Virus record (IMG/VR): IMGVR_UViG_3300044769_000038
DNA from: a virus
Length of the DNA stretch: 47,126 bases
Direction: 5' to 3' (one strand)
This document shows, in pieces, positions 4,544 to 37,502 of the stretch. Each line of letters begins with the position of its first letter. Within the stretch, counting starts at the first letter, position 1. The position numbers were made by a program, and so were the translations under genes. The notes beneath the pieces were generated by a model, which saw nothing but the letters and a program-made list of their open reading frames with translations, was not told the DNA's origin and did no database searches.

Positions 4544-5884
4544 ATGTTTCGTTTCAAGTTCCAGAATCTTTTCTCACCGGATGACGCACCGGGAGCAGGT
4601 GTGCCTCACGGAGTAGCCGGCGATGTCAGCATCATGGGCGAAGGTGAGGAAACAAGTGGTGATGCTTCGGACGATACTGAAGGCGCTGAAGGGGAAGAAG
4701 AAGCTCCTGCAGGAAAGCCTCGCGTCGAAAGCTTCAACGAGGACGAGCCGGCTGAAGAAAAAGCCGAAACCGAAGAAGAACCCGACGACGAAGAAGAAAA
4801 GCCTGAAGGCGAGCGCACCGACGAAGAAGTCTTCCAGGGTCGGCCGACGCTCACCGACGTAAAGGCCAAGTATCCGAAGATTTTCAAGGAGTTTCCCGAC
4901 CTCCGGGAGGTTCTCTTTCGTGAGGGAGAGTTCTCCAAGCGATTCGGCAGCGTCGAAGAAGCCGAAGACGCGATGGTCAAGGCGGGCTCCTTTGGAACGA
5001 TTGAAGCAGCCCTGTTGGGCGGCGACAGTTCTCCTATTATCGAGCAGCTGGGGGCCAATGCTCCTGAGGCTCTGGCATCCGTCGTCGACAACTTTCTCCC
5101 GCAAGTTCTGAAGCACTCGCAGGACCTCTATCTACGGGCCACGATGCCCGTGATTGAGCAATTCCTGCACACGGCCTACACTCACGGGAAGAACACTGGC
5201 GACGCTAACCTGATGAGGTCTGCGCAGCATGCGGCGAACTTCATCTTCGGAAAACCTGAGATTCCGGACCCGGCACGGAGAAATCAGCCGCGTGGTCCCC
5301 ATCCTGCCGAGCAGAAGCTTGAACAGGAGAGGAAAGAGTGGGCTGATACCAGATTTCGCGAGACTTCTGCTGAAATCTCCGCTGGTATCGACCAGGAACT
5401 CGAAGCCGATATCGTTAAGGGCCTCGATCCTGACAAGAAGCTATCTCAAAGGCAGAGGGCTAGTTTAATCAAAGAGATCAAAGACGAAATTGACGCGACC
5501 CTCGGCAAGGACGAGGCTTTCAAGCGTCAGATGCGCTCCCTGTGGCAGCGAGCAGGGACCGCCGGATATCCGAGAGACCAGCGAGCCAGCATAAAATCCG
5601 CGTTCCTGGCGCGCGCAAAAGCGTTGGTCCCATCGGTTCGCACGAAGCTCAAGGGCGAGTGGTTTGGACAGGCCGAAAAAGGGAGGCCTGACGGGGCGAA
5701 GGCTCCGGTTCGAGAAGTAGCTCCTCAGGGTAAGCCTGAACTCGGGAAGAAGCGGTTTGTGGCAGAAGCGGGTCGACCGGCAGCTGGAGCGGGACCGAAA
5801 CGTCCACCAGCTCCGAAGGACGTCGATTACGCTCGAACCTCAGACCTCGACCTCATCGAGGGACGGTTCACCAGAAGGCGATAA
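4544..5884 (+). CDS. Scaffolding protein (putative)
   Basis: 446 aa with a very acidic Glu/Asp-rich N-terminal third and a charged, helical-looking body. It sits directly between portal and major capsid. Confidence 0.6.
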   Translation: MFRFKFQNLFSPDDAPGAGVPHGVAGDVSIMGEGEETSGDASDDTEGAEGEEEAPAGKPRVESFNEDEPAEEKAETEEEPDDEEEKPEGERTDEEVFQGRPTLTDVKAKYPKIFKEFPDLREVLFREGEFSKRFGSVEEAEDAMVKAGSFGTIEAALLGGDSSPIIEQLGANAPEALASVVDNFLPQVLKHSQDLYLRATMPVIEQFLHTAYTHGKNTGDANLMRSAQHAANFIFGKPEIPDPARRNQPRGPHPAEQKLEQERKEWADTRFRETSAEISAGIDQELEADIVKGLDPDKKLSQRQRASLIKEIKDEIDATLGKDEAFKRQMRSLWQRAGTAGYPRDQRASIKSAFLARAKALVPSVRTKLKGEWFGQAEKGRPDGAKAPVREVAPQGKPELGKKRFVAEAGRPAAGAGPKRPPAPKDVDYARTSDLDLIEGRFTRRR

Positions 5885-5887
5885 TCA

Positions 5888-7141
5888 ATGGCTCTTGCTG
5901 AGACTCAAGTAGTCGCGAACGAACTTGAGCGTGTCGAACCGACGGTTCCCACGCTGTTCGACCGTGACGCGGTGTTCTACGCGAACATCGAAAAGAAGAC
6001 CCCGGAGAAGGTTTCCAATAGGGACATGCGAGTCCCGATGGAAATGCGTCCGGGCGGCCTGTTCGGTCACTACGACCCAGCAGGCGGAGACATGGGACGC
6101 GGCGAAGGTCCCGTGTTCGACAAGGCGCTCGTCAACACTGTCCACCTCAAGCATGCCATCGAATGGCACAAGAAGGCCGAGTGGGCGACTGACGATGCGC
6201 GGAAGTCGGTCGTCAACACGGTCCGTCACCTGCTCGCCAAGAGCATGGCGGAGTTCCGCCGTCACGTTGATTCGCTCATGATGACCTCCGGCAACGGAGT
6301 CGTCGGAACGATCAGCGGCGTCACCAACGCGGGTGGGTTCGACACCTACACGCTCGGGACTGACGGATTCGGTGCGCGTCTCGTTCGCGCCGGTCAGAAG
6401 GTCAACATCTACACGTCGAACCTCGCTGGCCCCGTCCATGCGACCGGCGTGGAAACTCCCATCACCTACCTCGATCTGGAGAACAAGCAGATCAAGGTCG
6501 CGACCGTGACGGGTTCGGCTCCGGGAAACGTGATTCTCCTGTCGGGTCTCTCAGGGGCGAGCCCCACCTCGCTTCTGGGAGTGCCTTACCATCACAACAA
6601 CGCATCGACGGGAACGTGGCTCGGTCTCGACCGAGGTGCCAACCCCGAGATTCGTTGCTCGCGAGTCAACGCCAACGGTTCGCCGCTGTCGTTGCCGTTC
6701 CCGAGGCTGGCCGTCAACAAAATCGGTGACCGTGTCGGCATCGACCACGGCACGAAGTTCCAGGCATGGATGCATCCGTGTCAGGTGCAGGCGTATGAGG
6801 ACCTCGGCCAGCAGGTCTCCATCATCAACAAGCAGGCGAAGGAAGAGGGACTCGACCTCTACTTCGACGTGCAGCAGCTCGCCGGCGTCCCCATCAAGAA
6901 GTCCTACTCGTGGGACAAGAAGCGCATCGACTTCATCGTGAACGAGGCGTGGGGTCGTGCCGAGATGCACCCCGCCGGATTCTACGAGGAAGGCGGACGC
7001 AAGGTGTTCGAGCTCAGAGGCGCTTCGGGTGGCGTGGCTGCGGCGAGCATCTTCTACATCGTGGTGTCGTTCAATCTCTACATGAACAACCCCACGAAGG
7101 GCGTCTACATCGACAACCTCGCGGTTCCGTCGGGCTACTAA
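5888..7141 (+). CDS. Major capsid protein (putative)
   Basis: 417-aa ORF immediately after the scaffold and followed by a large stem-loop. Its position and size fit a major capsid protein. Confidence 0.7.
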   Translation: MALAETQVVANELERVEPTVPTLFDRDAVFYANIEKKTPEKVSNRDMRVPMEMRPGGLFGHYDPAGGDMGRGEGPVFDKALVNTVHLKHAIEWHKKAEWATDDARKSVVNTVRHLLAKSMAEFRRHVDSLMMTSGNGVVGTISGVTNAGGFDTYTLGTDGFGARLVRAGQKVNIYTSNLAGPVHATGVETPITYLDLENKQIKVATVTGSAPGNVILLSGLSGASPTSLLGVPYHHNNASTGTWLGLDRGANPEIRCSRVNANGSPLSLPFPRLAVNKIGDRVGIDHGTKFQAWMHPCQVQAYEDLGQQVSIINKQAKEEGLDLYFDVQQLAGVPIKKSYSWDKKRIDFIVNEAWGRAEMHPAGFYEEGGRKVFELRGASGGVAAASIFYIVVSFNLYMNNPTKGVYIDNLAVPSGY

Positions 7142-7150
7142 TCAGGAGAA

Positions 7151-7226
7151 TGTCCGGGGTGAGGCTGGGCTTGTTATTATCCGACGTCAAGTCGGTCCCC
7201 GATAACAAGAAACCCCACCCCGGACA
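7151..7226 (+). promoter_or_regulatory. Long composite stem-loop downstream of the capsid gene (transcript-stabilising or attenuator hairpin)
   Basis: TGTCCGGGGTG pairs with CACCCCGGACA (11 bp), CTTGTTAT with ATAACAAG (8 bp) and CCGAC with GTCGG (5 bp), all nested. There is no U-tract afterwards. Confidence 0.5.
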
Positions 7227-7237
7227 CGCTAAATACG

Positions 7238-7765
7238 ATGGCTGAACAGGTTATTATAAACGAGCGGCTCAAACTCTACTACGGGACGGAGTTGGATGGA
7301 CGTCCGAGATATCGAGTCCTCTGGACGACCAACAAGACCGAGCAGAGAATCGGAGAGTTCAACGAGTTCTACGGAAAGATTTTCCTCAGGACCGTTGTTG
7401 GTATGAAAGAGTGTCTCAGATACCCCTACGACCAGGATCGGTGGGTAATTGAGAAACTGTTTTACATCAACAACCCTGAGCTAGTTTCCGAGAAGCCAGG
7501 GAGCTACGAACCTGTCCATATCTTGAAAGATAAGAATGGCGAGTATCTTCCGCTCAATTGGAAGGTTGTGCAGACTATCGTGGACTTTGCTGAAGCACGT
7601 CCTGTGGGCATCCAGTTGACGGACAAAGACTGGAAAGCAGAAGATCAGCAGCTCACGGACAAAGAGGTCGCATACTTCGAGGATGTGCTGGCCGATCAGG
7701 GGCGAAGCAACCTGTTTGCCTTTGAAAACTCAGTGTTCAACGACTCGACAAAGGTGTTCCGATGA
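7238..7765 (+). CDS. Hypothetical virion-module protein
   Basis: 175-aa ORF. Its stop overlaps the next ATG (ATGA). Confidence 0.55.
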   Translation: MAEQVIINERLKLYYGTELDGRPRYRVLWTTNKTEQRIGEFNEFYGKIFLRTVVGMKECLRYPYDQDRWVIEKLFYINNPELVSEKPGSYEPVHILKDKNGEYLPLNWKVVQTIVDFAEARPVGIQLTDKDWKAEDQQLTDKEVAYFEDVLADQGRSNLFAFENSVFNDSTKVFR

Positions 7766-9418: not shown

Positions 9419-11260
9419 ATGCTAGACCACGAACCCATCACAATTCGTCAGTTCCTCGGCACGTTTGACCGGGGTGACGATGAGTCTGTCCCGCCGGGAT
9501 ACTTCAGGGACTCCCGTAACGTTCGTTTCATGACGAACGCGGTGGAGACTCGTGAGGGGAGTAGTGTCGACCTCGACAAGTCGAACATTCGTCGCATGGC
9601 AATCTACAAGAGGTTGGGGGAGGCCCAGCGCCTGTTGCTGCTAGACACGAGCGGGAACTTGTGGGACTCAGTTAACATGGGTGCCCCCATCCTCTCTATC
9701 GTTGCCATGACGGACTTTTCGATGGAGACGATGTTTAATCGCGCTTACATCACTCCACACAACGGTGTAACCGGCTTGCCGGGAGAACGTGTCTATGTTT
9801 ATGAAGGTTCCGGATTGGCACGACCCGCGGGTGGGAACGCTCCAAGTGGTTTTGTACTCGGACTTGCAGATTCTACGGATTCGGGAAACTGTGAACCCGG
9901 TTCGCACGTGTTCGCGGTATGCAACGAGTCCATTACTGGTTACTTGTCTAAACCGGGTGGATTCGCTGCGTTCTCGCCAGTTGGTGAGAAAAAGCTAGAC
10001 GTCTCAAACATTCAGCCCGGACCAACCGGAACGGTAGCGCGTGTCCTCGTCGCCACTAAGATGATTGAGGACTACGCGGGCGACTACCAGAATCAGGAGT
10101 ATTTCTTTGTCCCCCTCGGACGACTCGCCGGAAACGTTGCGACAACCCTTACCGTTTCCTTCTTCGACGCAGACCTACAAGCCTCAGCTGATTTCCTCCT
10201 TGACCAGCTCGGAGAGATTCCAGCTGGCGTGTGTATCCGTAATTATCGAGGACGCCTTTGCGTCGGTGGAGAGAATCTTAACCCGGCTATCGTTAGAGTC
10301 TCCAACCCAGGAAATCCTGAATCACATGATGCAGTTGAAGGCTTTGTTACGGTTAATCCAGGGGATTCCGGAGGAGGAGTAACGAACCTCGCGACGTATA
10401 GGACGCAGCTTATCTGTTTCAAGGACGAGCGCACTTACGTCACGATGGATAACACCTTCAACCCAGCTTTCTGGAAGGTTGATGACATTGACCCCTCAAT
10501 GGGATGCTCTTGTCATGCGTTGGGCAAGATTCGAGACTTTGGGGATGGCACGGAAGATAGACTTTTCGTCGCTAATCGTCAAGGACTTCAGCTTTTCACG
10601 GGCACCTTCTCCGATGCCGTGGTCAGCTACGACATCGATACGCTCTGGAACAGAATCAACAAGAAATACTTCCACACCGTCGAAGTAGTGGTTGACCCAT
10701 ATGCCTACCTCGTTTATTGCGCTGTTCCCCTGGGGGCTGCTACTTCTCCTGATTATCTTTTCGTGGGTGATTATCAGGAAGGTATGGACAAAATAAAGTG
10801 GACCACTTGGTCATATCCTACTTTCCCGACGACCGTCGTCGTTGATCTCGACGAGGCTAAGAAAGAGGGAGTGTTCAAGTTCGGTTCGCTGAACGGGAAG
10901 ATTTACAAGTCCGACCTCACGCGCACAGACGACAATAACGTCGCAATCGCCTCCTATGTGCAGTTCGGCCACATGCCGACGGAGGACGATGAGCGAGTTT
11001 GGCACTTCACGGGAACTCGCATCAGGTGCAAGGGTGTAGGGGTTCTCGACATCATGGTAACAGGTGAGGACGGGGTGCTGACACAGTTTCCCGCCTCCCT
11101 GTTGCTATCTCTCGCACCAGGCCGGGGATTGTTCAGGGGGTTCAATTTCGTCAACGAACGTGCAAGCGTGAAGTTTGGCGTGGATGGGTTCGGGGAGAAG
11201 TTCAGGCTGACAAAGTATTGTCTCTATGGCTCCGTCGAATGGGAAACGAGGCCTGAGTAG
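9419..11260 (+). CDS. Large tail structural protein (putative)
   Basis: 613-aa ORF between small connector-like genes and the fibre genes. No diagnostic motif recognised. Confidence 0.45.
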   Translation: MLDHEPITIRQFLGTFDRGDDESVPPGYFRDSRNVRFMTNAVETREGSSVDLDKSNIRRMAIYKRLGEAQRLLLLDTSGNLWDSVNMGAPILSIVAMTDFSMETMFNRAYITPHNGVTGLPGERVYVYEGSGLARPAGGNAPSGFVLGLADSTDSGNCEPGSHVFAVCNESITGYLSKPGGFAAFSPVGEKKLDVSNIQPGPTGTVARVLVATKMIEDYAGDYQNQEYFFVPLGRLAGNVATTLTVSFFDADLQASADFLLDQLGEIPAGVCIRNYRGRLCVGGENLNPAIVRVSNPGNPESHDAVEGFVTVNPGDSGGGVTNLATYRTQLICFKDERTYVTMDNTFNPAFWKVDDIDPSMGCSCHALGKIRDFGDGTEDRLFVANRQGLQLFTGTFSDAVVSYDIDTLWNRINKKYFHTVEVVVDPYAYLVYCAVPLGAATSPDYLFVGDYQEGMDKIKWTTWSYPTFPTTVVVDLDEAKKEGVFKFGSLNGKIYKSDLTRTDDNNVAIASYVQFGHMPTEDDERVWHFTGTRIRCKGVGVLDIMVTGEDGVLTQFPASLLLSLAPGRGLFRGFNFVNERASVKFGVDGFGEKFRLTKYCLYGSVEWETRPE

Positions 11261-12786
11261 TGCCTAATCAGGATATCACGACCCTCATAGCAGGGCTTCA
11301 GATAGATGACCCGAAACTCTATCAAGCCTTGATGCTACTGAACGAGCGGATGTTGACGGTCGAAAACGACCTCTTTCCACTCGTTCGTCAATCTGAGGAG
11401 GCTGAGCTTCCTGAGTTACCCGTTCCAGCACCAGCGACGTTCACGTTCATTTTTGAGCCACTCAGCGTCGAGTTGAGATGGGCACCAGTTGACGGAGCTA
11501 CCATATATGAGGTTCGCAAGGGGACCGCCTGGGATACAGCATTCTTTCAGTTGCGGACAACTTCGCTACAGGCGGATATTTCGCCGTTGCCAGTTGGTTC
11601 GCATACGTTCCTGCTCAAGAGTGTGACTCCCGGTAACAGTTACTCTCTCGACTTTATCTCACTTGTCATCGACGTTCCACAGCTGGGAACACCAGTTCTA
11701 AGCGCCCGCACAATTGATAACAATGCACTCCTTAGCTGGAACATTCCGACTTCCGTATTCGCCATTAGTTACTACAACTTCTGGAAGAACGGTGGTCTCG
11801 TTGGTATCGTTCGTGGTAACTTCACGACATACTTTGAGATGGTCGGTGGCACTTTTCTCTATGGTATTTCGGCTGTAGACGTAGCTGGAAATGAATCGGC
11901 TCGTGGCGAGATCCCGGTAGTTCTGGCGATACCTCCAGACTTCGTGCTGGAGAGTATCTACGTCAGTAACTTGGGTATGCTTGACGCCCAAGCTCACGGT
12001 ATCTACATCGAGAAGGCTGGAAGCGTAAATCCGACTAATTTCATCTTCGAGAATCAGTCAGGCTTTACCACTGATCCGACGCACATCTATCTCGCGCTGA
12101 TTCAGACGAGTTCGACGCTTGTCAACTGTGTCCGTGAGCCTGGGCCGCGTTTGTTAGCTTGCTGGCTCATCACTAACTGGCAACAGCACTTTACGAATCG
12201 TTCATGGATTAGCCCGAAGAATCAGGTTGATGCTGGCTATCCAATTTATATCCAGCCGGGAGCACTGACGGGTAGCTATGAGGAGATTGTCAACTACGGG
12301 GCAATCTTCCCGAACGTAATCGCGACAATCTCATGGAGCACTCAGCCTATCGTTGGTAGTGTAGCCGTTAGAGTTTTAATGGCCGCATCGACAGATGGTG
12401 TGACATACGGACCAATGCTCGCGGGAGCTTCACAGTTCTTCGCAAGCATCAGGTTCTTGAAGTTTAAGTTGGAGTTCACTGGTGAGGATGACCATGCCCT
12501 CGCAGAGTTCTTTAATGTAACTATTTCGCTGAACGTGAAGAAAGAGTTGGACTCAGGTCTTGTCACCGCAAACGCTGGTGACATTACTGGCACGACAGTC
12601 CCGTTCAACAAGAAATTCAAGGACGTAGAATCGATTACCCTGACAGTCGAAGCGAAAGAGCCGATAACGGCCATTTACGACTTCAATGACATAGCTAATC
12701 CTGTGTCGTTCAAAGTCTTCGCACTCGATTCTACAGGAAATAGAGTTACGTATCCGGTGAGCTGGAAAGCTCGGGGGATAGTCTAA
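11260..12786 (+). CDS. Tail fibre / host-recognition protein with FN3-like module (putative)
   Basis: GTG start overlaps the previous stop. The segment FEPLSVELRWAPVDGATIYEVRKG resembles a fibronectin type III module. Lies in the fibre-cluster position. Confidence 0.5.
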   Translation: MPNQDITTLIAGLQIDDPKLYQALMLLNERMLTVENDLFPLVRQSEEAELPELPVPAPATFTFIFEPLSVELRWAPVDGATIYEVRKGTAWDTAFFQLRTTSLQADISPLPVGSHTFLLKSVTPGNSYSLDFISLVIDVPQLGTPVLSARTIDNNALLSWNIPTSVFAISYYNFWKNGGLVGIVRGNFTTYFEMVGGTFLYGISAVDVAGNESARGEIPVVLAIPPDFVLESIYVSNLGMLDAQAHGIYIEKAGSVNPTNFIFENQSGFTTDPTHIYLALIQTSSTLVNCVREPGPRLLACWLITNWQQHFTNRSWISPKNQVDAGYPIYIQPGALTGSYEEIVNYGAIFPNVIATISWSTQPIVGSVAVRVLMAASTDGVTYGPMLAGASQFFASIRFLKFKLEFTGEDDHALAEFFNVTISLNVKKELDSGLVTANAGDITGTTVPFNKKFKDVESITLTVEAKEPITAIYDFNDIANPVSFKVFALDSTGNRVTYPVSWKARGIV

Positions 12787-13851: not shown

Positions 13852-14048
13852 ACAACAACCAACTCGAAACAAGCTCAGCTGAACTCTTTGCTCTTATTGG
13901 AGAGCGTGAGTTCATAAAGTATAGGCAGGGACTTGAAATCCAAAAACTCTATACTCAAGTTGAAGAGATGAGTCATGAAATTAGCCGACTTAAAGCAGAA
14001 CTACAGGAAACTAAGGGTGCTGAGATTCTAGATATAAAGCGAGGCTAA
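13848..14048 (+). CDS. Hypothetical small coiled-coil protein
   Basis: An internal ATG at 13848 gives an ATGA overlap with the upstream stop. 66 aa, helical (EIQKLYTQVEEMSHEISRLKAELQE). Confidence 0.45.
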   Translation: MNNNQLETSSAELFALIGEREFIKYRQGLEIQKLYTQVEEMSHEISRLKAELQETKGAEILDIKRG

Positions 14049-14049
14049 G

Positions 14050-14526
14050 TTGGCTAACTGGTCAAATCCCACGATTACGACGCAGTATGACGTCTTCGTC
14101 AACGAGGCGAAGGAACGTGACGTTGATGCTGCAACGATGTTCTTAAATATCCCTTCAAATCCTCCGATTGGGGGAATTAGATTGGGACGTTTAGGTAGTC
14201 GCATGTTCAGATTACAGGAGTGGGATGTTCCAGGACAGTTCTGGGATTTATACCTTCACGTATCAGGTGGGGGAACGGGCGCAAGTGAACCAGTCGGGGC
14301 GCGAGCTAATCTTGGTATTGGCACGATGGGTGTGCAGAACTCGAATGCTGTCGCGATCACAGGGGGAACTGTTAATAATATTACAAGTTTTTCATTAAGC
14401 ACCTCTATCGTATTCAATGCAGGAGCAGCCTATGACCTCGGGAGCAATGGTGCGAGAGCACGGCGTGGTTATTTCGCAGATGCACTCGTGCTCCCCGCTG
14501 GTGTCGACAAGTTTGCCACGAGCTAA
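14050..14526 (+). CDS. Tail fibre protein, short form (putative)
   Basis: TTG start. The ANWSNPTITTQYDVFVNEAKERD N-terminus and the segment GGGTGASEPVGARANLGIGTMGVQNSNAVAITGGTV are typical of phage fibre proteins. Confidence 0.55.
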   Translation: MANWSNPTITTQYDVFVNEAKERDVDAATMFLNIPSNPPIGGIRLGRLGSRMFRLQEWDVPGQFWDLYLHVSGGGTGASEPVGARANLGIGTMGVQNSNAVAITGGTVNNITSFSLSTSIVFNAGAAYDLGSNGARARRGYFADALVLPAGVDKFATS

Positions 14527-15539
14527 TGGCTAAGATTGCTGGCTCAACGTGGATTGAGGGTAGTGAGCTACACTACGTCGATAGCTCCGGTGTAGAGTGG
14601 TATTATCCTGCGACTCCGTGGGGTGGTGCGAATGTTGGTGTCGTGGGTTCAGTATGGGTTGAGGGTAATGATCTTCACTTCATCGCTGAGAACACATCGG
14701 AATACTATATCCCCGGAACTGACCGAGGATTCAAGGTTGGCTCAATCTCAGGCTCAGCGTGGATTGAGGCTAATCTCTTTAGTTGGATTGCCGTCAATCA
14801 AAACAAGTTTCAGGCCCATACTGACGTAGCTCACGTGGATGGCATCGGGACTCCGCATACCGATACACACACGGACACGCACGCTGACGGGCCTCATAGC
14901 GACACGCCGCATCAGGACGTAGCTCATAACGATTGGTATGATAACATCGCTCATCAGGACACTCACAGTGACGTGCCGCATGGGGATAATCCTCATACCG
15001 ATTGGCATGATGATGTGGGCCATAACGATACTCATAGTGATACGGGTCACAGTGATAGTCATGACGATGTTCCACACAGTGACTGGCATAATGATGGTGC
15101 CTACAGCATAAACGATGTTGGACAGCATTTTGATGGTCACTTTGACCAGACAAATACGAATCCATCAAGTCCACAGCATAATGATGCTCATTACGATCAC
15201 AATGATGGTAATAATAGCCCAACGGGTCATTATGACATTCATTATGATGAGCATTCTGATACGCACAGTGATACGCACAGCGATACAGCTCACGCAGATA
15301 CGCATACGGACCAGGCTCACAATGACAATCATGGGGATGGCAGCCCACATAGCGACTCAGCGCATGGTGATGCTCACACTGACCGACCGCATGAGGATGC
15401 TCACTTCGACTCAGGGCATGGGGATGCTGGCCATACCGATTCGGCCCACGTGGATACACATGACGACACGCACGTAGATGTCCCGGCGACGCACTCGGAC
15501 GTAACTCACAACGACTTTCCCGTATACGTAGGTCCTTAA
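14526..15539 (+). CDS. His-Xaa-Asp repeat protein (N-terminal triple GSxW[IV]E repeat plus ~235-aa HxD array), candidate substrate of the downstream radical SAM enzyme
   Basis: TAATG coupling at both ends. I count about 45 H-x-D triplets by eye (HTDTHTDTHADGPHSDTPHQDVAHND...). There is no Cys in the array. Confidence 0.75.
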   Translation: MAKIAGSTWIEGSELHYVDSSGVEWYYPATPWGGANVGVVGSVWVEGNDLHFIAENTSEYYIPGTDRGFKVGSISGSAWIEANLFSWIAVNQNKFQAHTDVAHVDGIGTPHTDTHTDTHADGPHSDTPHQDVAHNDWYDNIAHQDTHSDVPHGDNPHTDWHDDVGHNDTHSDTGHSDSHDDVPHSDWHNDGAYSINDVGQHFDGHFDQTNTNPSSPQHNDAHYDHNDGNNSPTGHYDIHYDEHSDTHSDTHSDTAHADTHTDQAHNDNHGDGSPHSDSAHGDAHTDRPHEDAHFDSGHGDAGHTDSAHVDTHDDTHVDVPATHSDVTHNDFPVYVGP

Positions 15540-16732
15540 TGTCGATAGAATACTTGCCCGTTGGTATCGCCTGCAATCTGCAATGTGGTTACTGTTATCA
15601 GGACCCCATGCGGAATGCTGGCAATATCAGTGTGCCACGTGACTGGCCTAAAGCCAAGGCGCAGCTTCTCAAAGAGGGAAGCGATTTCGCTCTATTCGGC
15701 GGTGAGCCATTGCTCGCACCCATCGAGCACATCGAGGAGGTTCTGAAGTTTGGGCTCGAATCTTTCGGACGCAATGGTATTCAAACCAACGGTAGTCTCA
15801 TCACTGACGAGCACGTTGCGCTCTTTAAGCGATACCGTGTTGGTGTTGGTATTAGTGTGGATGGCCCTGGAGAGCTTAATGATGTTCGTCAGATGGGCAG
15901 CGAAACGGGAGTTGCAACAGCGAGAACAGAGCGGGCAATCAAAAAGCTCTGTGACGCAGGAATCCCGCCAAGTCTAATCGTTACTCTACACGATTGGAAC
16001 GCCGGGACAACCCGTGCGCTCCGTCAGATGACTAATTGGTTGACCGACCTAAGCAAGCATGGCATTCGACATGTAAACCTGCACGCCTTGGAAGTGGAGA
16101 AATGTCATACTGGTCTGGGAATGTCGCAAGCCAAGACCATTGATGCGTTCACTCACTTCTACGATTACTGGCGGACGAGCAGCCTCGAAATCATGCCGTT
16201 CAGCGACATCGTGAAGCTCTTGACTGAGCAGCAACCGCGTGTTTCGTGCGTCTGGAATAACTGTGACCCGCTCACTACCGCAGCAGTTCGAGGAGTTGGC
16301 CCCGACGGAGTTCAGAGCAACTGCGGTCGAACCAATAAGGACGGCATCAACTGGGTCAAAGCTGACTCACCTGGTCAGGAAAGGTATCTAATACTCCAGC
16401 AGATACCACAAGATCTTGGGGGTTGTAAGGACTGCCGCTACCTTACCTTGTGTAAGGGTCAGTGCCCTGGAACTGCGATCGATGGTGATTGGAGAAACCG
16501 AACAGCTGACTGCCAGCTATGGTATCATCTTTTCACCATCATCGAGAAGGACTTAGGCTCGAAGGTTCGCCCGTTCGCTCATGAGAAAGTCTTTCAAGAT
16601 TCGGCTACTCATGGCGACAGCGCGCACGGAGATGTAAATCACGGAGATAGTCACGGCGATGTCCCTCATGGTGATGGGCATGGCGATTCCGATGCGAGAG
16701 GAGTTCCCGTCACATGGAAAGACTTACGATAG
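15539..16732 (+). CDS. Radical SAM / SPASM-domain protein-modifying enzyme with C-terminal HGD repeat tail
   Basis: CNLQCGYC (CX3CX2C), GGEPLL, and a SPASM signature (GVQSNC ... CKDCRYLTLCKGQC = CX2CX5CX3C ... ADC). The tail reads HGDSAHGDVNHGDSHGDVPHGDGHGDSD. Confidence 0.85.
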   Translation: MSIEYLPVGIACNLQCGYCYQDPMRNAGNISVPRDWPKAKAQLLKEGSDFALFGGEPLLAPIEHIEEVLKFGLESFGRNGIQTNGSLITDEHVALFKRYRVGVGISVDGPGELNDVRQMGSETGVATARTERAIKKLCDAGIPPSLIVTLHDWNAGTTRALRQMTNWLTDLSKHGIRHVNLHALEVEKCHTGLGMSQAKTIDAFTHFYDYWRTSSLEIMPFSDIVKLLTEQQPRVSCVWNNCDPLTTAAVRGVGPDGVQSNCGRTNKDGINWVKADSPGQERYLILQQIPQDLGGCKDCRYLTLCKGQCPGTAIDGDWRNRTADCQLWYHLFTIIEKDLGSKVRPFAHEKVFQDSATHGDSAHGDVNHGDSHGDVPHGDGHGDSDARGVPVTWKDLR

Positions 16733-18135
16733 ACCTTCCAGAGTTCATGCGAACTATCTGGGTTAGCGAGCAAGCGAGAACTACCTGGGAACATAGGTTT
16801 CAGCAGATTAGCAGAAGTTGGGAGTCAATCGAAAGGCTCTCAGTTCCTAGCCTTAGGGCTGCGGCTTTACAGGTGGTAACGCCTGAGAATCTACCTGAAC
16901 TCTCAGAGGAAGTTGCGAAGAGAGGTCTGGTAGCTTTTCCTCTTGCGCGTCAGGGCACTTCAAACGCTGGTTATCAGAACGCGACGACCGAGATGAGACC
17001 GGGTGGACCGTGGAACTATCGGGTGGTCATCACTAGACCTGAATATATTCCAGGGTTCGTCGAAGCGTGGCGCGCGCAAGACAACGACGCTATCGGGGCG
17101 TTTCTCGGCTTTCCCGAATGCTGCCGTAACTTCTACGAGTGGTCATGGGTGAAACAGGGCTGGCGTGACGTAGCAATAACCGGCACCGTAGGCGAGGATG
17201 GTATAGACTTGACTGCTATGCTACCTGAGCTTCACACGGTGGGCTACTACCAGAACAACGTGTTCTTGAGACAGCTCGGTGTTCGACTCGTCTCGCATCT
17301 TCCATGTTCACTTGCGTGTTCCGTATCGCAAGACGTGGGCAAGGCTAACGAGAAACTGGCTATCAAGCTCGGTTATCTCAAGGAAATGGAATGGTCGCGC
17401 GAGATTCTTGACTGGCCGTTGAAATGGTCATCACTACATGGTGTTGCGATTGTCACTACTCCGGTGGTAAAGGTTGTATACAACACCGACGCACTCTCGG
17501 AGAAGGTTGAGATACTGAAAGACGGAGATAGGTATCCAGCCGAGGGCGGAAGGGGCGACTTTCCTTTCCGGAAAAGTGTTCATGTGGTGAACAGTTCAAG
17601 GGATAACGGATTTTCAAGTCAAGATGCTATGCTAAACGCACACGCGATGATCGTTCAGGGTGTCATGTCATTGAACATCCCTGAGGGGGCTAAAATCGTT
17701 GACTTGGGGTGTGGTGATGGCCAGTTACTCGAGACCATCTCTGACGTGGTCAAGGTGGTCCCAATCGGTGTGGAATCGGACAAGAAGAGATTCGAAAAGG
17801 CATCGGCGCGTCTCGTCGGAAGAGCACATCAGCTGTGTCACGCTGATCTGTTTGCTTTCTGGGATGGTGATAGCCAATATTTTCTTGGCCTTGTATCAAT
17901 CAATCGACTGGCTGAAGCAAGCGCCGACAAGGCAAAGGACCTTCTTAGAAGATTGAAGCTACACTGTGAGCACGTGATCTTCTATAGCTACGTGTCAGAC
18001 AAATGGCCCGGTTTTCCTGGAATGACGAACGGCTTCGTCGTCGAGAAATTCCTGACTGGTCCAAACTCGTGTGCTGCGCTCATGCGTCCCGTAAACGTCG
18101 AGATCGTAAAGGAAACCGAATATGAAGCCAATTAA
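16714..18135 (+). CDS. Fusion of a Cys-containing domain of unknown function with a class I SAM-dependent methyltransferase
   Basis: Overlaps the rSAM gene by 19 nt. The N-terminal ~300 aa contain FLGFPECCRNFY and SHLPCSLAC. The C-terminal part has methyltransferase motif I, KIVDLGCGDGQLLE. An alternative ATG lies at 16747. Confidence 0.65.
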   Translation: MERLTIDLPEFMRTIWVSEQARTTWEHRFQQISRSWESIERLSVPSLRAAALQVVTPENLPELSEEVAKRGLVAFPLARQGTSNAGYQNATTEMRPGGPWNYRVVITRPEYIPGFVEAWRAQDNDAIGAFLGFPECCRNFYEWSWVKQGWRDVAITGTVGEDGIDLTAMLPELHTVGYYQNNVFLRQLGVRLVSHLPCSLACSVSQDVGKANEKLAIKLGYLKEMEWSREILDWPLKWSSLHGVAIVTTPVVKVVYNTDALSEKVEILKDGDRYPAEGGRGDFPFRKSVHVVNSSRDNGFSSQDAMLNAHAMIVQGVMSLNIPEGAKIVDLGCGDGQLLETISDVVKVVPIGVESDKKRFEKASARLVGRAHQLCHADLFAFWDGDSQYFLGLVSINRLAEASADKAKDLLRRLKLHCEHVIFYSYVSDKWPGFPGMTNGFVVEKFLTGPNSCAALMRPVNVEIVKETEYEAN

Positions 18136-18676
18136 CAAGTGGGCAATCGTTGGGCTGCTGTTGTTCGTCAGCGCGTGCGAGTATAACCTCGGACCAACGA
18201 CGAACATCAACAGCACCAACACCAACACGAACACAAACACGAACAACACCGACATTCACGACCTGGTCAACTTTGCACCAGTCGCGAATCCATCGGCACC
18301 GTTACCAGTTCCAGGTGGTGGCACGGAAGTCCCACTTCCGATTCCGACGGGTGCTCAGAACACCGCGACGACCTACGCAACGAACAATGCTGCGTTGCTG
18401 GCTCGCTCATGTCAGGACCTATATGGCGAGAGTGCATGGGCATTTCTCGATGGAATGGTCAAGACACTCTCTGCGACGGACCCACGATGGGGTTACGTCG
18501 TCAAGTCGAACACTGGAACAATCAGCCGAGACGTGATTGCCTATCGCGCGACTTCCAGCAACCGGGGTGCATGGGGAGTCGATGTCATAGTTGACCATTG
18601 CGGCACATCATCATCGTTTGCCTGGAATGTGTTGGGACTCGACGCAAACCTACAGTGGTCGGCGACGCGGTTCTAG
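18122..18676 (+). CDS. Lipoprotein with Thr-Asn repeat linker
   Basis: Signal peptide plus lipobox (MKPINKWAIVGLLLFVSAC), then TNINSTNTNTNTNTNNT. Overlaps the previous gene by 14 nt. Confidence 0.7.
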   Translation: MKPINKWAIVGLLLFVSACEYNLGPTTNINSTNTNTNTNTNNTDIHDLVNFAPVANPSAPLPVPGGGTEVPLPIPTGAQNTATTYATNNAALLARSCQDLYGESAWAFLDGMVKTLSATDPRWGYVVKSNTGTISRDVIAYRATSSNRGAWGVDVIVDHCGTSSSFAWNVLGLDANLQWSATRF

Positions 18677-19060
18677 ATGATTCTCAGGGGGTTCCGAAAT
18701 GAGGACATACCTGCCATTGACAAAATTTGGCGGGATCACCACAGTTCTGATTTTTCCGTCCCTGACAGAGAAAACAGGATTGTGGACGCGGTGGTGGTCG
18801 AGGGTGAGCAGGTTATTGGCTATGGACAGGTCAAGCTGTTTGCAGAGGCCATGCTCATCCTCGACCTGAGCGCCACGAGACGACAGAAAGTCGAAGCCAT
18901 CAAGCTACTCATGTTAGAAGCGTTCAGGGGTTGCGACCAGGCTGGCATTCATCAAGTATACGCTTTCATTAAAGATCCCGACTTCGCTACTCTCATCTCT
19001 CGCCACTTCGGATTTGAAGTGGTTGACAAGGGTGAGTTACTCTTGAGAGAGGAAGTATAA
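18677..19060 (+). CDS. Small GNAT-like acetyltransferase (tentative)
   Basis: 127 aa with the overall GNAT pattern (VVVEGEQVIGYGQV ... HQVYAFIKDPDFATLISRHFGFEVV). The acetyl-CoA motif is weak. Confidence 0.4.
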   Translation: MILRGFRNEDIPAIDKIWRDHHSSDFSVPDRENRIVDAVVVEGEQVIGYGQVKLFAEAMLILDLSATRRQKVEAIKLLMLEAFRGCDQAGIHQVYAFIKDPDFATLISRHFGFEVVDKGELLLREEV

Positions 19061-25289: not shown

Positions 25290-26509
25290 AGTTTCCCCAT
25301 CTTATTGTAACGCTCTAGAACCTTGGGGTCAAGGACTAAATGTGTCTCTGTATACCCCACTCCCCTACCCGTCGGCACCTGCTCAGTTTCCACCCGTATA
25401 GCCTTCGCTTGTAACAGAGATTCTACAATCACTACCATCTCGTCAGAGTTGAAGTGACCCCAGAACTTACGGAGTAGGTTACTGACGGTATCCCTATGCC
25501 CTTCGACGGACAACAGATGCCGCAAGACTACCGCGATTCCCTCCTTTGATAAAGACTTGCCCTGAGCACCGAGAGTAACCTTGCGCGCTCCAGGGACAAA
25601 AGCTGAACATACTTCGATGGCCTTTGTGATGTCCTCGATTGTGAGTAGAAGACTCGTGTCACGACTGAGTGACAAAAGAGTAGCAACCTTGAGTACTGAG
25701 TCGGTGAATCGCTCAAGTGTTCCTGTGTCATCATCATGCTCACTTTTGTCGAACTCTAGATACCAGTCATTATACAACGCTTTGGCTGGTGGTGTCCACT
25801 CAAATGCACCCTTGACTGTCGAGAGCTTCTTCAGATACGCTGCCAAGTCAGGGATGCTTACGATGGTGTCAGGTTTCTCCGTAAGGGAGTTGCTTCCAGA
25901 CTTCTTATCCGCATGGATAATGAACGTCCGTGCTACGAACCCACCACCGAGCGCATTCTGTGGCACCGCCTCCTTAAAGTGTGTTTCGTTCGATGCTCCT
26001 ATCATCGTCAGGTAAGGTTCTTTGAGCGCCTTCTTGCCCCCACCCTTAGTAAGATAGTCCCATGTTTTATCATGATAGTTCCGGTCGTATAGGTCGGTCA
26101 GAATCGTTAGAGCGGACTCATTCTGGATGATGAACGAGGCGAACTCAGACGATACTAGATACCCACGACTGTCCATGATAGGTGGTCTACCATTCTTACT
26201 CGTCGAGGCAGTTGCAAGCTCGCTAATGATGGCCTCGATAGAACTTCTACCTGCAAACACACGGGTGTTGTCGACCTCCTCAACCAATGACTTAGCGAGT
26301 TGGACAGGAGGCCCTTTTCTCAACCCTGAACGCCCCACCAGAATGACATATATGTTGGGCCACAGCTTGTAATAATGTCGGTCGAGGTATACGTTATTCG
26401 CAACCACGGCAGAAATAGCTGACAAGCCTGCCCAATAATAGTATTCTTTTGGAGATTCAGAATCCTTGGTCGATTCAAGAACCTGATCAATCCACGTCAC
26501 ATTATGCAA
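25286..26509 (-). CDS. Putative replication protein (DUF3987-like helicase/primase-associated domain) with degenerate P-loop
   Basis: 407 aa. YYYWAGLSAISAVVANNV ... LWPNIYVILVGRSGLRKG resembles DUF3987-type phage proteins, but the Walker A Lys-Ser/Thr is not canonical. Confidence 0.35.
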   Translation of the reverse strand: MHNVTWIDQVLESTKDSESPKEYYYWAGLSAISAVVANNVYLDRHYYKLWPNIYVILVGRSGLRKGPPVQLAKSLVEEVDNTRVFAGRSSIEAIISELATASTSKNGRPPIMDSRGYLVSSEFASFIIQNESALTILTDLYDRNYHDKTWDYLTKGGGKKALKEPYLTMIGASNETHFKEAVPQNALGGGFVARTFIIHADKKSGSNSLTEKPDTIVSIPDLAAYLKKLSTVKGAFEWTPPAKALYNDWYLEFDKSEHDDDTGTLERFTDSVLKVATLLSLSRDTSLLLTIEDITKAIEVCSAFVPGARKVTLGAQGKSLSKEGIAVVLRHLLSVEGHRDTVSNLLRKFWGHFNSDEMVVIVESLLQAKAIRVETEQVPTGRGVGYTETHLVLDPKVLERYNKMGKL

Positions 26510-29021
26510 CCTCTTTCAGATTGAAATCCTTGAGCTCCTTATAGTTCTCTCCAATCTTCGCCTCACACGGAATAGTTAGCATACCCCGCTGAAGCGTGCA
26601 CCTACTGAAATCGATAGGAGTCTCGAACTCCTCCTTGATGATGCGAGCGTGATACTCGATTTGTGAGATTGGGGTCATGAACACGAGCGCGTCATGGGCC
26701 TCAACCACCATACGCACGTCCGGGATTCTCTCCTTGATACGAAGGGCGCACTTCTTGGTATGGTCGGCTACGGTTGACTGAGGTATCTGAGCGTAGGCTT
26801 CACGCCATAGGTCGTCACCCCACCATCCGTTGAAAACACGCGCACGACCGAACGGGTTGACGAGCATCATGTTGTTGTTCTGTAGCGCGTCAACTACCTC
26901 TGCGTGGAAAACCTCTCGAATCCACGGAGAGAACCGATGGAAAGCATCGAGCATCTGACCCGCTTTCCACTCCGAGAGAGCTGCGATGTTCACGTCGTAT
27001 TTCTTGGCGTTAGTGTTGACCAGCTCCATCAGCCGTCGCTTGCCCATGTCGTAGTTACCGGCGTGGCGCACAGTCTTGCCGATGAATCGCATCTCCTTGG
27101 TGATGAGGTGCATGGCTAGACTGAACACCCACGTCGAGGTCAGCTTATGGATGTCGGTCATGTTGAACAGCTCCAGAGTTTCCTGAGAGCGGCCCAACAA
27201 TGCAACGACGCGAGCCTCAGCCTGAGATTGGTCGAACTCCATGATGACATGGCCCTTATCAGCCACGAACATCTTGCGAAGCTCAGCCCCCATCTCACCA
27301 TGCTTGCTCATGGTCTGGAAGGCCAACCCCATTTCAAATGGCCTGACTGGGGGCTTGAGGGTCGTGTTCGACGTTCTTCCTGTCTCAGTTCCGCAGATGC
27401 GAATAGATGTTCTCATTCGCCCGTCGAAGTCGCACGGAGCTTCGATATAGGTGCCCTTCGCCTTGCGCCACCCGCGTATGGAGAGGATGAGGTCAATGGC
27501 CCGCTTATGCTCAGCCTTCTTACACGTGTTGGCTTGGAGCGCGATGAGCACGTCCTCACCAGTGCTGGCCTTCAGCTCGCCCTGAGCGTTCCGACTCCCT
27601 TTCCCCTTACCAGTCCTGATTGGGAGTCCGAAGTCCTTGTAGATGAGTAGACCGATTTGCTTAGGTGAGTTGCAGTTGACGGACCAACCTGCTATCTCAT
27701 TCAACTCAGCCTGAGCAACCTTAATCTTAGCGTCGTAGTCCTTGAGCATGGACTGACGCTTATTCTCATCAACCGCGAATCCCTCATCTTCCATGTCGCG
27801 ATAGAGCGGGTGGAGACGCATGACGAAATCATGGAAGAACTCCTCACGCCAGTTCGGGAATCCTGGAACCTCGAACTCTCCCATCGCCGCATTCATGGCC
27901 GTCTTAATCTCGAATGCTACTGCTGCGTCCTTCGCGTTGTAGAGGAGTAGCTGCTCTACGGGAGACCGTTTGAGGTCGAACTCCTTTCCCTCGTCCTTGT
28001 AGTATGGTTCCTCTGTGTAGATGGAGCCGAGAAATGCCTGGGACTTTTCCAGCTCACAATGAAGTGAATGAGCCGCGAGCATGTTGTCCCAAAACACGTT
28101 CTGCACAACCATCCCGCATGGTCGACGGAGTTTCGCGTCATCGAACTTGAAGTTCTGTCCGATTACCTTGAGGTCCGGCAAACTAAGGAAGTCACCCAGC
28201 ACACGCCAGATGTTGATGAACTCCCCCTCGGAGATACCAGAGGGCTTCCTCTGAAACTTCCAGATGTCGATGAGGGGGACGGACATGGCATGCCACTCAT
28301 TGAAGGCCAGCGCTATGCAAACAGGCATTGCATGTAGGACTTCAATGTCAACCGATACCTCACGAAGTTTCTGCTCCGTGTAGTATTTCGTGAGGAAGCG
28401 CCAGAGGTCTACGGAACTACGCCCAACCTCCAGCGTCCTTCTCGGTAGCTTGAACTCAGGGAATCGTGACTGCTCGACAGCCCTGTTCAGATCATGCTGG
28501 ATATAGAGGCGCGAGGCATAGCTAATAGCCTTCTCCTGCACCACTCCTTCCGACTGTGACCTGAGTAGGGCTGCCGGGTGAATCGTGGGCAGCACCTTGT
28601 AGTTACCCTGCAACGCCGTCAGGATGGAACCTCTCCAGGTCGTGATGCCCGAGAACTTCTCAGTCTTACGGACCCGCGTTCCCTTACCCGTCAGCGCCCA
28701 CAGAGAAAGGTTCCCGAGAGCGATGATGCAGTTGGGCTTGATTGCGTGAATCTCATCCCACAGCTCGGGAATCTGCTCATCGATGGAGATACCAATGCCA
28801 CCCAGGTTGTCAAGCCTGTTGAACGGTGGCTTATACTTGACGACGTTGGTGACGTAGACCTCTCCCCTACGGATGCCTGCTGTCTCCAGCATCTCGTTGA
28901 GGAGTTGACCTGATGGACCGCTGAACGGGATACCGGATTCGTCCTCGACGGCACCGGGAGCCTCGCCGACTACCATCAGAGGCGCACTAAACGGTCCCTG
29001 ACCCTTCACGTAGTTCGGCAT
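26502..29021 (-). CDS. Family A DNA polymerase with N-terminal family-4 UDG-like domain and 3'-5' exonuclease
   Basis: UDG-like LMVVGEAPGAVEDESGIPFSGPSGQLL, exo motif VSVDIEV, and polymerase motifs A (DQSQAEARVVA), B-like (RHAGNYDMG) and C (VEAHDAL). Confidence 0.9.
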   Translation of the reverse strand: MPNYVKGQGPFSAPLMVVGEAPGAVEDESGIPFSGPSGQLLNEMLETAGIRRGEVYVTNVVKYKPPFNRLDNLGGIGISIDEQIPELWDEIHAIKPNCIIALGNLSLWALTGKGTRVRKTEKFSGITTWRGSILTALQGNYKVLPTIHPAALLRSQSEGVVQEKAISYASRLYIQHDLNRAVEQSRFPEFKLPRRTLEVGRSSVDLWRFLTKYYTEQKLREVSVDIEVLHAMPVCIALAFNEWHAMSVPLIDIWKFQRKPSGISEGEFINIWRVLGDFLSLPDLKVIGQNFKFDDAKLRRPCGMVVQNVFWDNMLAAHSLHCELEKSQAFLGSIYTEEPYYKDEGKEFDLKRSPVEQLLLYNAKDAAVAFEIKTAMNAAMGEFEVPGFPNWREEFFHDFVMRLHPLYRDMEDEGFAVDENKRQSMLKDYDAKIKVAQAELNEIAGWSVNCNSPKQIGLLIYKDFGLPIRTGKGKGSRNAQGELKASTGEDVLIALQANTCKKAEHKRAIDLILSIRGWRKAKGTYIEAPCDFDGRMRTSIRICGTETGRTSNTTLKPPVRPFEMGLAFQTMSKHGEMGAELRKMFVADKGHVIMEFDQSQAEARVVALLGRSQETLELFNMTDIHKLTSTWVFSLAMHLITKEMRFIGKTVRHAGNYDMGKRRLMELVNTNAKKYDVNIAALSEWKAGQMLDAFHRFSPWIREVFHAEVVDALQNNNMMLVNPFGRARVFNGWWGDDLWREAYAQIPQSTVADHTKKCALRIKERIPDVRMVVEAHDALVFMTPISQIEYHARIIKEEFETPIDFSRCTLQRGMLTIPCEAKIGENYKELKDFNLKEVA

Positions 29022-37268: not shown

Positions 37269-37502
37269 GTCTGCTCCTTGATAAGCTGCTGGTTTATCTC
37301 TCGCGAAACCAGCAAAGACGGTGTGTTCCTCCACGTCCCAGTCCCGTATCTCACACACAACGGTAGGGTAAAGGGGCACTCATGAAAGTCCTTACTCTCC
37401 TGTCCTTATCATGAGGTAGAGACTCGAGAGAATCTCCATGCCGTATCCCCGAGAGTTGACAACCCTCGGACGCTCTGAGCTTAGCTACCTATTTATAGTG
37501 GC

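Follow-up and report, generated by a model that had tools for sequence, protein, structure and literature searches.

Why should a bacteriophage carry a gene for a radical S-adenosylmethionine (SAM) enzyme directly behind a gene whose product is built largely of His-Xaa-Asp (HxD) triplets? The question is raised by the IMG/VR viral record IMGVR_UViG_3300044769_000038, the whole 47,126 bp of which (the window) was analysed; it is a complete contig and a phage genome. Three overlapping open reading frames (ORFs), named here A, B and C, encode respectively the HxD protein, a radical SAM enzyme with a SPASM domain, and a Cys-rich domain (C_N) fused to a methyltransferase. A first interpretation made from the letters of the DNA (the sequence-only reading) had proposed that the HxD array is the substrate, or at least the partner, of the adjacent enzyme. 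Linkage in phage and bacterial loci, the affinities of ORF B with known maturases and several gene fusions support this core reading at the level that comparative genomics can reach, and we consider it probable, with moderate confidence, that the three genes form a protein-maturation cassette in which the array is the substrate of ORF B. The features concerned are the following.

14050..14526, plus strand: fibre-like ORF of 158 amino acids (aa), translationally coupled to the HxD protein gene; weak PHROG match
14526..15539, plus strand: ORF A, HxD protein, 337 aa
14526..14816, plus strand: N-terminal domain of ORF A (A_N, residues 1-97), with three GSxW(I/V)EGxxLH(Y/F)-type repeats
14817..15515, plus strand: HxD array of ORF A (residues 98-330), 45 His-Xaa-Asp triplets; proposed substrate region
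15539..16732, plus strand: ORF B, radical SAM/SPASM enzyme, 397 aa
16610..16687, plus strand: C-terminal HGD tail of ORF B (residues 358-383), six HGD triplets
16714..17598, plus strand: C_N, DUF483-like Cys-rich domain of ORF C (residues 1-295)
17611..18108, plus strand: class I SAM-dependent methyltransferase domain of ORF C (about residues 300-465), fused to C_N

The three ORFs were found where the sequence-only reading had placed them. The stop codon of A shares the letters TAATG with the ATG of B, and B and C (16714..18135) overlap by 19 nucleotides. The TAA stop of the 158-aa ORF upstream overlaps the ATG of A in the same manner, again as TAATG.

The array had been estimated at about 45 triplets in a protein without Cys; exactly 45 H-x-D motifs were counted between residues 98 and 330, and the lack of Cys was confirmed. 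After 2000 shuffles of the repeat region, 9.2±2.5 H-x-D were expected and the maximum was 17. The triplets follow one another mostly at 4-5 residues, their middle residue is variable (S, T, N or G being the commonest), and the region, which holds 50 Asp and 45 His, has a strongly negative net charge. In the comparison with the orthologues of loci L007 and L102, H and D were each conserved at 97%, X at 53% and the linkers at 50%, a pattern which shows, as far as the homologues can tell, that selection acts on the H and D of the array. A recent tandem repeat of the DNA was considered and rejected, just three short local repeats being found. ORF A has no Pfam domain and no NCBIfam or PHROG match, and A_N taken separately matches nothing in these three collections. 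A word-index search with the 97-aa A_N domain also returned nothing, a result which reflects the sensitivity limit of the method and is not evidence of absence. By tblastn, A_N was detected in 41 of the 77 viral and none of the 80 cellular loci described below, and the layout of A_N followed by HxD motifs occurs in 32 distinct viral proteins.

ORF 14794..15576, which runs antisense to the array, is a shadow frame of it; exact look-ups of ORF A and of this antisense product in a protein collection found neither. In two G+C-rich acidobacterial contigs from metagenome-assembled genomes (MAGs), L002 (7198-7998, plus strand) and L003 (5294-5995, plus strand), the HxD gene was left uncalled and the antisense frame was chosen, giving products of 207 and 274 aa, so that HxD precursors can be missing from protein databases. 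Such wrong-strand calls may have helped the system to escape notice. A general mis-calling of the HxD gene was rejected: the gene calls of the window recur in a near-identical contig of 46.9 kb that comes from a different sample, ORF A being correctly called in it, and the mis-calling is limited to L002 and L003.

ORF B displays the motifs announced by the sequence-only reading, namely CNLQCGYC (C12, C16 and C19, the CX3CX2C motif at 15572..15595), GGEPLL and a full set of SPASM cysteines, encoded within 16247..16513. The latter (C237, C242, C262, C296, C299, C305, C309 and C325) are invariant in 24 homologues, and the protein matches the Pfam Radical_SAM profile (E 2.3e-16). Its five best NCBIfam matches are DynA, AmcB, the anaerobic sulfatase-maturating enzyme (anSME), TIGR04083 (peptide modification in methanogens) and GrrM/OscB, each of them a maturase of peptides or proteins, and DarW, YhhB, PapB, DarE and QhpD come lower. 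ORF B reaches the cut-off of no NCBIfam family, the scores being (score versus cut-off, in bits) 88.5 versus 450 for DynA (E 4e-25), 81 versus 425 for AmcB, 77.8 versus 349 for anSME, 64 versus 310 for GrrM, 56 versus 445 for YhhB, 49 versus 453 for QhpD (E 3.6e-13), 40.5 versus 450 for XyeB and 38 versus 370 for FxsB. When a profile of the family was compared with the PDB, the best matches were anSME (4k36, E 2.6e-24) and ChlB (9gm3, E 2.6e-15), SkfB being also among the best. A clustering with a non-peptide radical SAM family, which would have spoken against a peptide or protein substrate, was therefore not seen, since the five best NCBIfam and the two best PDB matches are maturases. As all these matches remain under the cut-offs, ORF B belongs, by its sequence, to the peptide- and protein-modifying SPASM group and to no described family of it.

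The protein starts directly at the cluster-binding motif, with no N-terminal recognition domain, and no RiPP recognition element (RRE; RiPP, peptide synthesized by the ribosome and modified after translation) was found in ORF B or C of the window with Pfam and NCBIfam. At its other end it has a feature unmentioned in the sequence-only reading, a tail of six HGD triplets at residues 358-383. Tails with at least three HxD were found in 58 of the 77 viral and 14 of the 78 cellular homologues, and in locus L064 the enzyme is fused to an array of 31 HxD. For the HGD tail of the phage enzymes, the roles of cis substrate, of pseudo-substrate and of docking element are all conceivable. In the Thermus phage phiLo (L165; MH673673, 178 kb; 4815-7449) the C-terminal extension of the enzyme is longer, with 9 HxD; no separate HxD protein stands beside it and two IS605 OrfB transposase fragments lie directly upstream, so that the precursor gene may be displaced or lost.

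The association between the array and the enzyme was analysed in 157 loci gathered via homologues of ORF B (38-80% identity), 77 of them viral and 80 cellular. The cellular loci come from Acidobacteriota, Actinomycetota, Cyanobacteria, Planctomycetota, Chloroflexota, Bacteroidota, Proteobacteria, Paenibacillus, Armatimonadota, other bacteria and one archaeal (Nitrososphaeraceae) MAG. An HxD-dense ORF on the same strand directly adjoins the radical SAM gene or the C gene in 61/77 viral and 60/80 cellular loci (121 in total), and some loci scored without an array show short HxD or YDD stretches beside the cassette. Elsewhere, just 22 HxD-dense ORFs were found in 1.75 Mb read in six frames. The C_N domain adjoins the radical SAM enzyme in 71/77 viral and 72/80 cellular loci (143 in total), whereas the methyltransferase domain is present in 45/77 and 32/80, respectively. 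In the reverse direction, viral contigs were scanned with a DNA pattern of four consecutive HxDx units and, among the matches listed, the radical SAM enzyme was present in 9 of 11 viral loci whose best ORF had at least 19 HxD. The two exceptions differ in character, as do all the shorter matches, in being simple or microsatellite-like repeats. Most of the matches listed are perfect 12-nucleotide repeats of the microsatellite-like kind, found in giant-virus MAGs and without relation to the heterogeneous HxD arrays. The linkage on which the sequence-only reading depended was thus recovered from both sides. Clustering of the neighbouring genes in the bacterial loci revealed nothing conserved beyond the three genes: no protease, no exporter, no second radical SAM enzyme and no small conserved partner.

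The proteins that carry the array are diverse. They include stand-alone proteins of 100-500 aa and proteins of 900-1900 aa with Laminin_G_3 or FAD_binding_4 domains; in phages, the array follows the 95-aa A_N domain or belongs to large lectin-domain proteins. The number of motifs goes from 5 to more than 90 per protein, with a maximum of 93. Since these carriers are unrelated, it is the array, and not the carrier, that travels with the enzyme. A twin-arginine translocation (Tat) signal of the type F-S/T-R-R-x-L-L/I-R-A-G... stands immediately before the array in 21 of 60 bacterial carriers and in none of 61 viral ones, in some cases with a lipobox. Tat export would fit with a finishing of the protein in the cytoplasm by an oxygen-sensitive enzyme, followed by display outside. 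In L004/L005 (3077-5980) and L021 (8684-11881), arrays were observed as insertions, N-terminal and central, in oxidoreductase-like proteins of the FAD_binding_4 type; in these carriers the array is attached to an enzyme and not to a structural protein.

Gene fusions bring independent support to the link between array and enzyme, and they concern C_N as well. Besides the fusion of the radical SAM enzyme to the array, a fusion with C_N (P0240) and a fusion with C_N and the methyltransferase (P0205) were found, and C_N is fused elsewhere to a PqqD domain above the Pfam threshold (P0190, E 7.5e-10; P0261, E 1.1e-9). PqqD is a peptide-binding RiPP recognition element. In the window, ORF C shows FPECC and PCSLAC in an N-terminal domain of about 295 aa and VDLGCGDG in a class I methyltransferase domain, as the sequence-only reading had it; a PHROG search with ORF C gave no match. 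In the alignment of C_N homologues C136, C137, C198 and C202 are invariant and H195 and H242 nearly so, and Thermus phages have His instead of Cys at position 198, a replacement that may be a sign of a metal site. Pfam DUF483 matches weakly around the GFPxCC motif in 33 of 38 C_N homologues, and a HMMER scan of 1.84 billion representative sequences gave about 1014 C_N clusters at 50% identity (E≤1e-10). C_N was modelled alone because the Foldseek search of full-length ORF C was dominated by the methyltransferase domain. The resulting AlphaFold2 model, with a mean predicted local distance difference test (pLDDT) score of 90 and a predicted template modelling (pTM) score of 0.85, has no significant fold match in the PDB (best 2guk, E 0.02, template modelling (TM) score 0.22) or in BFVD. 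The domain is probably a metal-dependent second enzyme or a holder of the substrate. The methyltransferase domain matches Pfam MetW (8.8e-7) and, by Foldseek, the class I methyltransferases ChlM, NodS and BpumL (E about 1e-8); its sequence matches in the PDB also include the plantazolicin methyltransferase BpumL. Judged from these matches it is a generic methyltransferase with RiPP N-methyltransferases such as BpumL among its relatives, and it would appear to be an optional tailoring step.

The sequence-only reading had located the cassette between fibre genes and internal virion protein genes. The first half of this statement is in agreement with PHROG matches upstream, to a tail/host-specificity family for ORF 11260..12786, two ORFs upstream of the neighbour of A (E 5e-10), and, weakly, to a tail-fibre family for the 158-aa ORF (phrog_25747, E 0.0028); for the second half no support was obtained, the three ORFs downstream (456, 373 and 1173 aa) being without any annotated match. 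The C-terminus of the 158-aa ORF, ...LVLPAGVDKFATS, ends in LVLPAGVDKF, and that of its equivalent in the Thermus phage Cumys (gp14, Cumys_14), just ahead of the HxD protein gp13, is VLPVGTDRW; Cumys gp14 comes after a protein annotated as tail collar fiber protein. In four viral loci (L162, L132, L155 and L145) a fibre-like N-terminal part with a VLPVGxDKF motif is fused to A_N and an HxD array. The A_N part of the L162 protein, the one compared, is homologous to ORF A (E 3e-16), and the direct similarity between the 158-aa ORF and the fused N-terminal part is weak (E 0.013). Gene order, these weak matches and the fusions in relatives support a role of ORF A in the fibre module.

Downstream of the cassette, a 184-aa ORF (18122-18676, plus strand) with a lipoprotein-like N-terminus (…LLLFVSAC), an (NT)n linker and no family match is inserted ahead of the next conserved ORF; the relative L001 lacks it. 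The small ORF at 18677-19060 (plus strand; 127 aa, or 89 aa according to another gene caller) has no Pfam match and is similar by eye to L001:8499-8915; a family of ORFs of about 128 aa occupies the equivalent position downstream of the cassette in 25 viral loci.

How might such a cassette work? In the mechanism that we propose, ORF A would be a protein of the tail-fibre region whose C-terminal two-thirds, with the 45 H-x-D motifs, is the substrate. ORF B, with its full SPASM domain, predicted to hold two auxiliary Fe-S clusters, and with no leader-binding domain, would recognise the H-x-D motif itself and would modify every copy of it in the cytoplasm of the infected cell. A direct reading of the motif, as anSME reads the motif of sulfatases, is suggested because the enzyme lacks a leader-binding domain and the carriers are diverse. 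By analogy with characterised maturases, the reaction would most likely be a repeated crosslink between imidazole and Asp Cβ (i, i+2), in which Asp loses a hydrogen atom from its Cβ, to which the upstream His, two residues away, is then bonded through its imidazole (C2 or N). This crosslink is favoured because an aromatic residue and a Cβ-bearing one keep strictly to positions i and i+2, because H and D are equally conserved, and because of the nearest relatives of ORF B. Each crosslink would remove 2 Da and close a three-residue macrocycle, so that the array would become a chain of small rigid rings. In a second step ORF C would act, its CC...HxPC...C domain probably binding a metal and modifying or holding the array, while the methyltransferase domain, present in some lineages, would probably methylate the remaining imidazole nitrogen or carboxylate. 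The finished protein would then be displayed outside the cytoplasm, on the phage tail fibre or, in bacteria, after Tat export. The type of bond, the roles of C_N and of the methyltransferase and the display on the virion are what we infer here. The peptide PHTDTHTDTHAD is named as a model H-x-D substrate for ORF B. Taken as a whole, the picture of a phage radical SAM enzyme that installs dozens of His–Asp macrocycles on a protein of the tail-fibre module, with a second modification by a new metal-binding fold, to give a 'stapled' appendage, the same cassette being widespread in bacteria, is put forward tentatively and with a confidence clearly lower than that given to the cassette itself.

Other explanations of the locus were weighed against this one. 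In the main rival, the enzyme would modify the array by a different reaction, such as an anSME-like oxidation or hydroxylation of the Asp Cβ, an epimerisation, a decarboxylation or a change limited to His, similar to the +8 Da change reported in HxsA, the product being finished by C_N and the methyltransferase. All the linkage evidence would fit this equally well, anSME is as near to ORF B as the cyclophane synthases are (77.8 versus 81-88 bits) and is its best PDB match, and the HXS phage-defence system shows that His-x-Ser repeats can take an uncommon modification (PMC13128918). However, motifs for three-residue crosslinks are defined by this layout, an aromatic residue and a Cβ-bearing one strictly at i and i+2 (PMC11499958), and a single-residue modification would not need both H and D to be conserved at 97%; such a reaction is possible but seems to us unlikely. 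The array could, on the other hand, be an unmodified metal-binding or polyanionic domain, the radical SAM enzyme and the DUF483-like protein with its methyltransferase acting elsewhere, for instance on phage DNA. His and Asp are classic metal ligands, their abundance and the charge of the array are compatible with this idea, the methyltransferase domain is generic, and a preprint on Thermus phages proposed DNA modification on account of homologues that, in some cyanobacteria, lie near deazapurine genes. It is difficult to reconcile with the adjacency seen in about 120 loci with unrelated carriers, with the fusion of the enzyme to an array, with the PqqD/RRE domains fused to C_N and with the five best NCBIfam matches. 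The Tat signals of bacterial HxD proteins mean that the partner leaves the cytoplasm, the compartment of DNA, and nucleotide-modification genes were found neither in the cassette nor among its conserved neighbours. The DNA-modification idea being weakened by the Tat signals, the RRE fusions, the fusion of enzyme and array and the maturase affinities, this explanation was judged improbable. It is more improbable still that the enzyme is the one served, the HxD stretches being its store of iron or metal, its scaffold for assembly or a pseudo-substrate that regulates it, with the true substrate elsewhere: the HGD tails of most viral homologues and the long arrays sometimes fused to the enzyme would suit such a helper, whereas arrays on Tat-exported lipoproteins and on large lectin-domain proteins are hard to square with an intracellular one and arrays of up to 93 motifs are far beyond the size of a docking element.

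Several points also weigh against a maturation cassette that crosslinks a virion protein. The chemistry, crosslink and methylation alike, is for every member of the family a prediction from the genes, and it is not transferable by homology because ORF B lies below every curated family cut-off. H and D at positions i and i+2 of an extended strand would also suit plain metal chelation, and the role given to C_N is a guess because the domain has no recognisable fold relative. About one fifth of the loci have no detected HxD-dense neighbour, many of these, though not all, being truncated contigs; the loci were selected through the radical SAM enzyme, and the reverse scan covers what is found among the matches listed. 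A virion location of ORF A is suggested by gene order, weak PHROG matches and the fusions in relatives, and seven HxD carriers encoded by related phages gave no PHROG match.

Most of what is known of radical SAM/SPASM maturases concerns natural products that are short peptides, together with a few proteins matured at a single site. The cassette appears to represent a third mode, in which a single enzyme would proceed along whole proteins whose three-residue motif is repeated from 5 to more than 90 times; it is spread over many bacterial phyla and several unrelated phage groups, and its DUF483-like partner is a new domain without structural relative in the PDB or BFVD. If the maturation reading is true, phage radical enzymes can chemically remodel virion-associated proteins, which would bear on the stability of fibres, on the metal and pH dependence of adsorption and on host range. 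It would then be, to our knowledge, the first case in which a radical SAM enzyme modifies a structural protein of the virion, and a RiPP-type chemistry acting on a full-length protein with the largest motif copy number known to us. Bacteria would, in that case, widely build modified HxD proteins that are Tat-exported or placed at the surface, C_N alone counting about 1000 clusters at 50% identity, distributed over many phyla. Since the Thermus phages Cumys and phiMa can be cultivated on a genetically tractable host, they offer a good test bed for what would be a highly iterative macrocyclase.

In the rest of the window, the rightward arm comprises the large terminase followed by mostly unannotatable genes, and the leftward arm comprises a primase, DNA polymerase A, a ParB–methyltransferase fusion, a Sak4-like annealing protein, an exonuclease and a helicase. 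No close relative of the phage was identified among 50,697 deposited phage genomes; the nucleotide search of 14000-18700 against these records gave zero matches, and protein searches with the putative capsid and the 1173-aa protein gave nothing, or one unannotated match. In the leftward replication-gene arm, a Pistol self-cleaving ribozyme (Rfam RF02679, full model) was detected at 37442-37512 on the minus strand, with 55.5 bits for a gathering threshold of 34.5 (E 1.6e-7). The DNA polymerase A (26502-29021, minus strand) has an N-terminal domain of the uracil-DNA-glycosylase superfamily (Pfam UDG, E 3.5e-27), which precedes the 3'-5' exonuclease and polymerase domains of the same protein. A 475-aa protein (29348-30778, minus strand) has matches to ParB-like nuclease/partition proteins together with PHROG matches to DNA methyltransferases and is apparently the ParB–methyltransferase fusion. 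Between about 40980 and 42990 there is no ORF of at least 100 aa; this stretch, which includes the lowest G+C of the window (0.45 at 41-42 kb versus about 0.55 overall), may have a regulatory function, serve as an origin or hold several small genes in a row.

The comparison with known systems begins with phages. The sequence-only reading knew of no described phage system of this kind; a three-gene module had in fact been noted in a 2024 preprint, in which its function was left open. According to this work, the Thermus phages Cumys and phiMa share an 'rSAM module' composed of a radical SAM protein, a DUF483 protein and a hypothetical protein, prophages have similar loci, and DUF483 also occurs fused to methyltransferase or radical SAM domains (bioRxiv 10.1101/2024.08.14.607894). 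Its authors suggested DNA modification, and the word 'histidine' is absent from the text (bioRxiv 10.1101/2024.08.14.607894). By tblastn, the enzyme of the window is 48-49% identical to those of Cumys, phiMa and phiLo. The Cumys/phiMa module consists of the same three genes in the same order, an A_N plus HxD protein, a radical SAM enzyme with an HGD tail and a DUF483 protein: Cumys gp13 is made of A_N repeats followed by a long HxD array, and the neighbour of the Cumys enzyme is annotated as a DUF483-domain protein. It differs by the lack of the methyltransferase fusion and by the His that replaces Cys198. On gene content and order the window cassette is a member of this uncharacterised module. 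In the literature searched, no study was found that pairs HxD repeats with a radical SAM enzyme, an HxD cluster being possible in the networks of the JACS 2022 triceptide landscape; a search for cyclophanes in bacteriophages gave nothing relevant, the mention in a phage N4 paper being a citation alone.

HXS, a defence system described in 2026 whose proteins the sequence-only reading had evoked, is the closest functional parallel: HxsB and HxsC mature a His-x-Ser repeat protein, HxsA, in which a change of +8 Da is reported and which blocks the entry of phage DNA from the periplasm (PMC13128918). A repeat protein of the type His-x-(small polar), maturation by radical SAM enzymes in the cytoplasm, an action outside it and a tie to the phage–host conflict characterise HXS (PMC13128918), and the proposed phage cassette would mirror this host defence. 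The pairing proved to be a conceptual likeness, neither HxsB nor HxsC being among the 25 best NCBIfam matches of ORF B. HxsA has five HxS repeats, is rich in basic residues and bears a peptidoglycan-binding domain, whereas ORF A has 45 acidic HxD and no Pfam domain; HxsB, HxsC and HxsD operate there, in contrast with one radical SAM enzyme and a DUF483-like protein here; and HXS is host-encoded while the present cassette is phage-encoded. A listed defence system was also considered and rejected, as PADLOC gave generic matches to the radical SAM core (viperin) and to methyltransferases, none of them specific.

Three other maturases provide partial parallels. DynA, the dynobactin maturase, connects His-N with the Cβ of the third residue (H-x-Y) and also forms a C–C link between Trp and Asn. 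Among the NCBIfam families it matches ORF B best, yet at 88.5 bits for a cut-off of 450, and its precursor is a short peptide with one core, without HxD repeats and without a DUF483-like partner. anSME, the best match among solved structures, shares with ORF B the SPASM domain and the lack of a leader-binding domain; its target is a short motif within a full-length protein, exported later, and it acts by abstracting a Cβ hydrogen. It differs by its score (77.8 versus 349 bits) and by acting on one site per protein instead of dozens, no C/S-x-P-x-R motif is present, and no sulfatase gene was found in the window or among the conserved neighbours. QhpD, the maturase of quinohemoprotein amine dehydrogenase, crosslinks side chains to Asp/Glu carbons in a subunit that is exported afterwards. 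This SPASM enzyme is matched at E 3.6e-13 (49 versus 453 bits), but it forms Cys-to-Asp/Glu thioethers, while ORF A is devoid of Cys.

The triceptide synthases (HaaB, YhhB and HtkB, as well as AmcB, GrrM/OscB, XyeB and ChlB) are SPASM radical SAM enzymes like ORF B. Their substrates have aromatic-X-X motifs, often repeated, which are crosslinked to the Cβ of the third residue, and His is accepted in the first position (PMC11499958); thus HaaB (HAA), YhhB (HNR) and HtkB (HTK) join His-C2 to the Cβ of residue i+2 (PMC11499958). A His motif with Asp as third residue was not found in the triceptide literature examined. The likeness lies in the CX3CX2C and SPASM motifs of ORF B, in the 45 H-x-D of the adjacent protein and in the presence of triceptide families among the best matches of the enzyme. 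ORF B nevertheless scores below every family cut-off (XyeB, GrrM/OscB, FxsB, YhhB and AmcB) and is a member of none; whole proteins with up to 93 motifs stand here in place of short precursors with 1-3 motifs; and the DUF483-like partner is obligatory, with no protease or exporter conserved nearby. By sequence criteria the cassette is thus placed outside the triceptide, HXS and anSME families, and by analogy it probably works like the triceptide systems.

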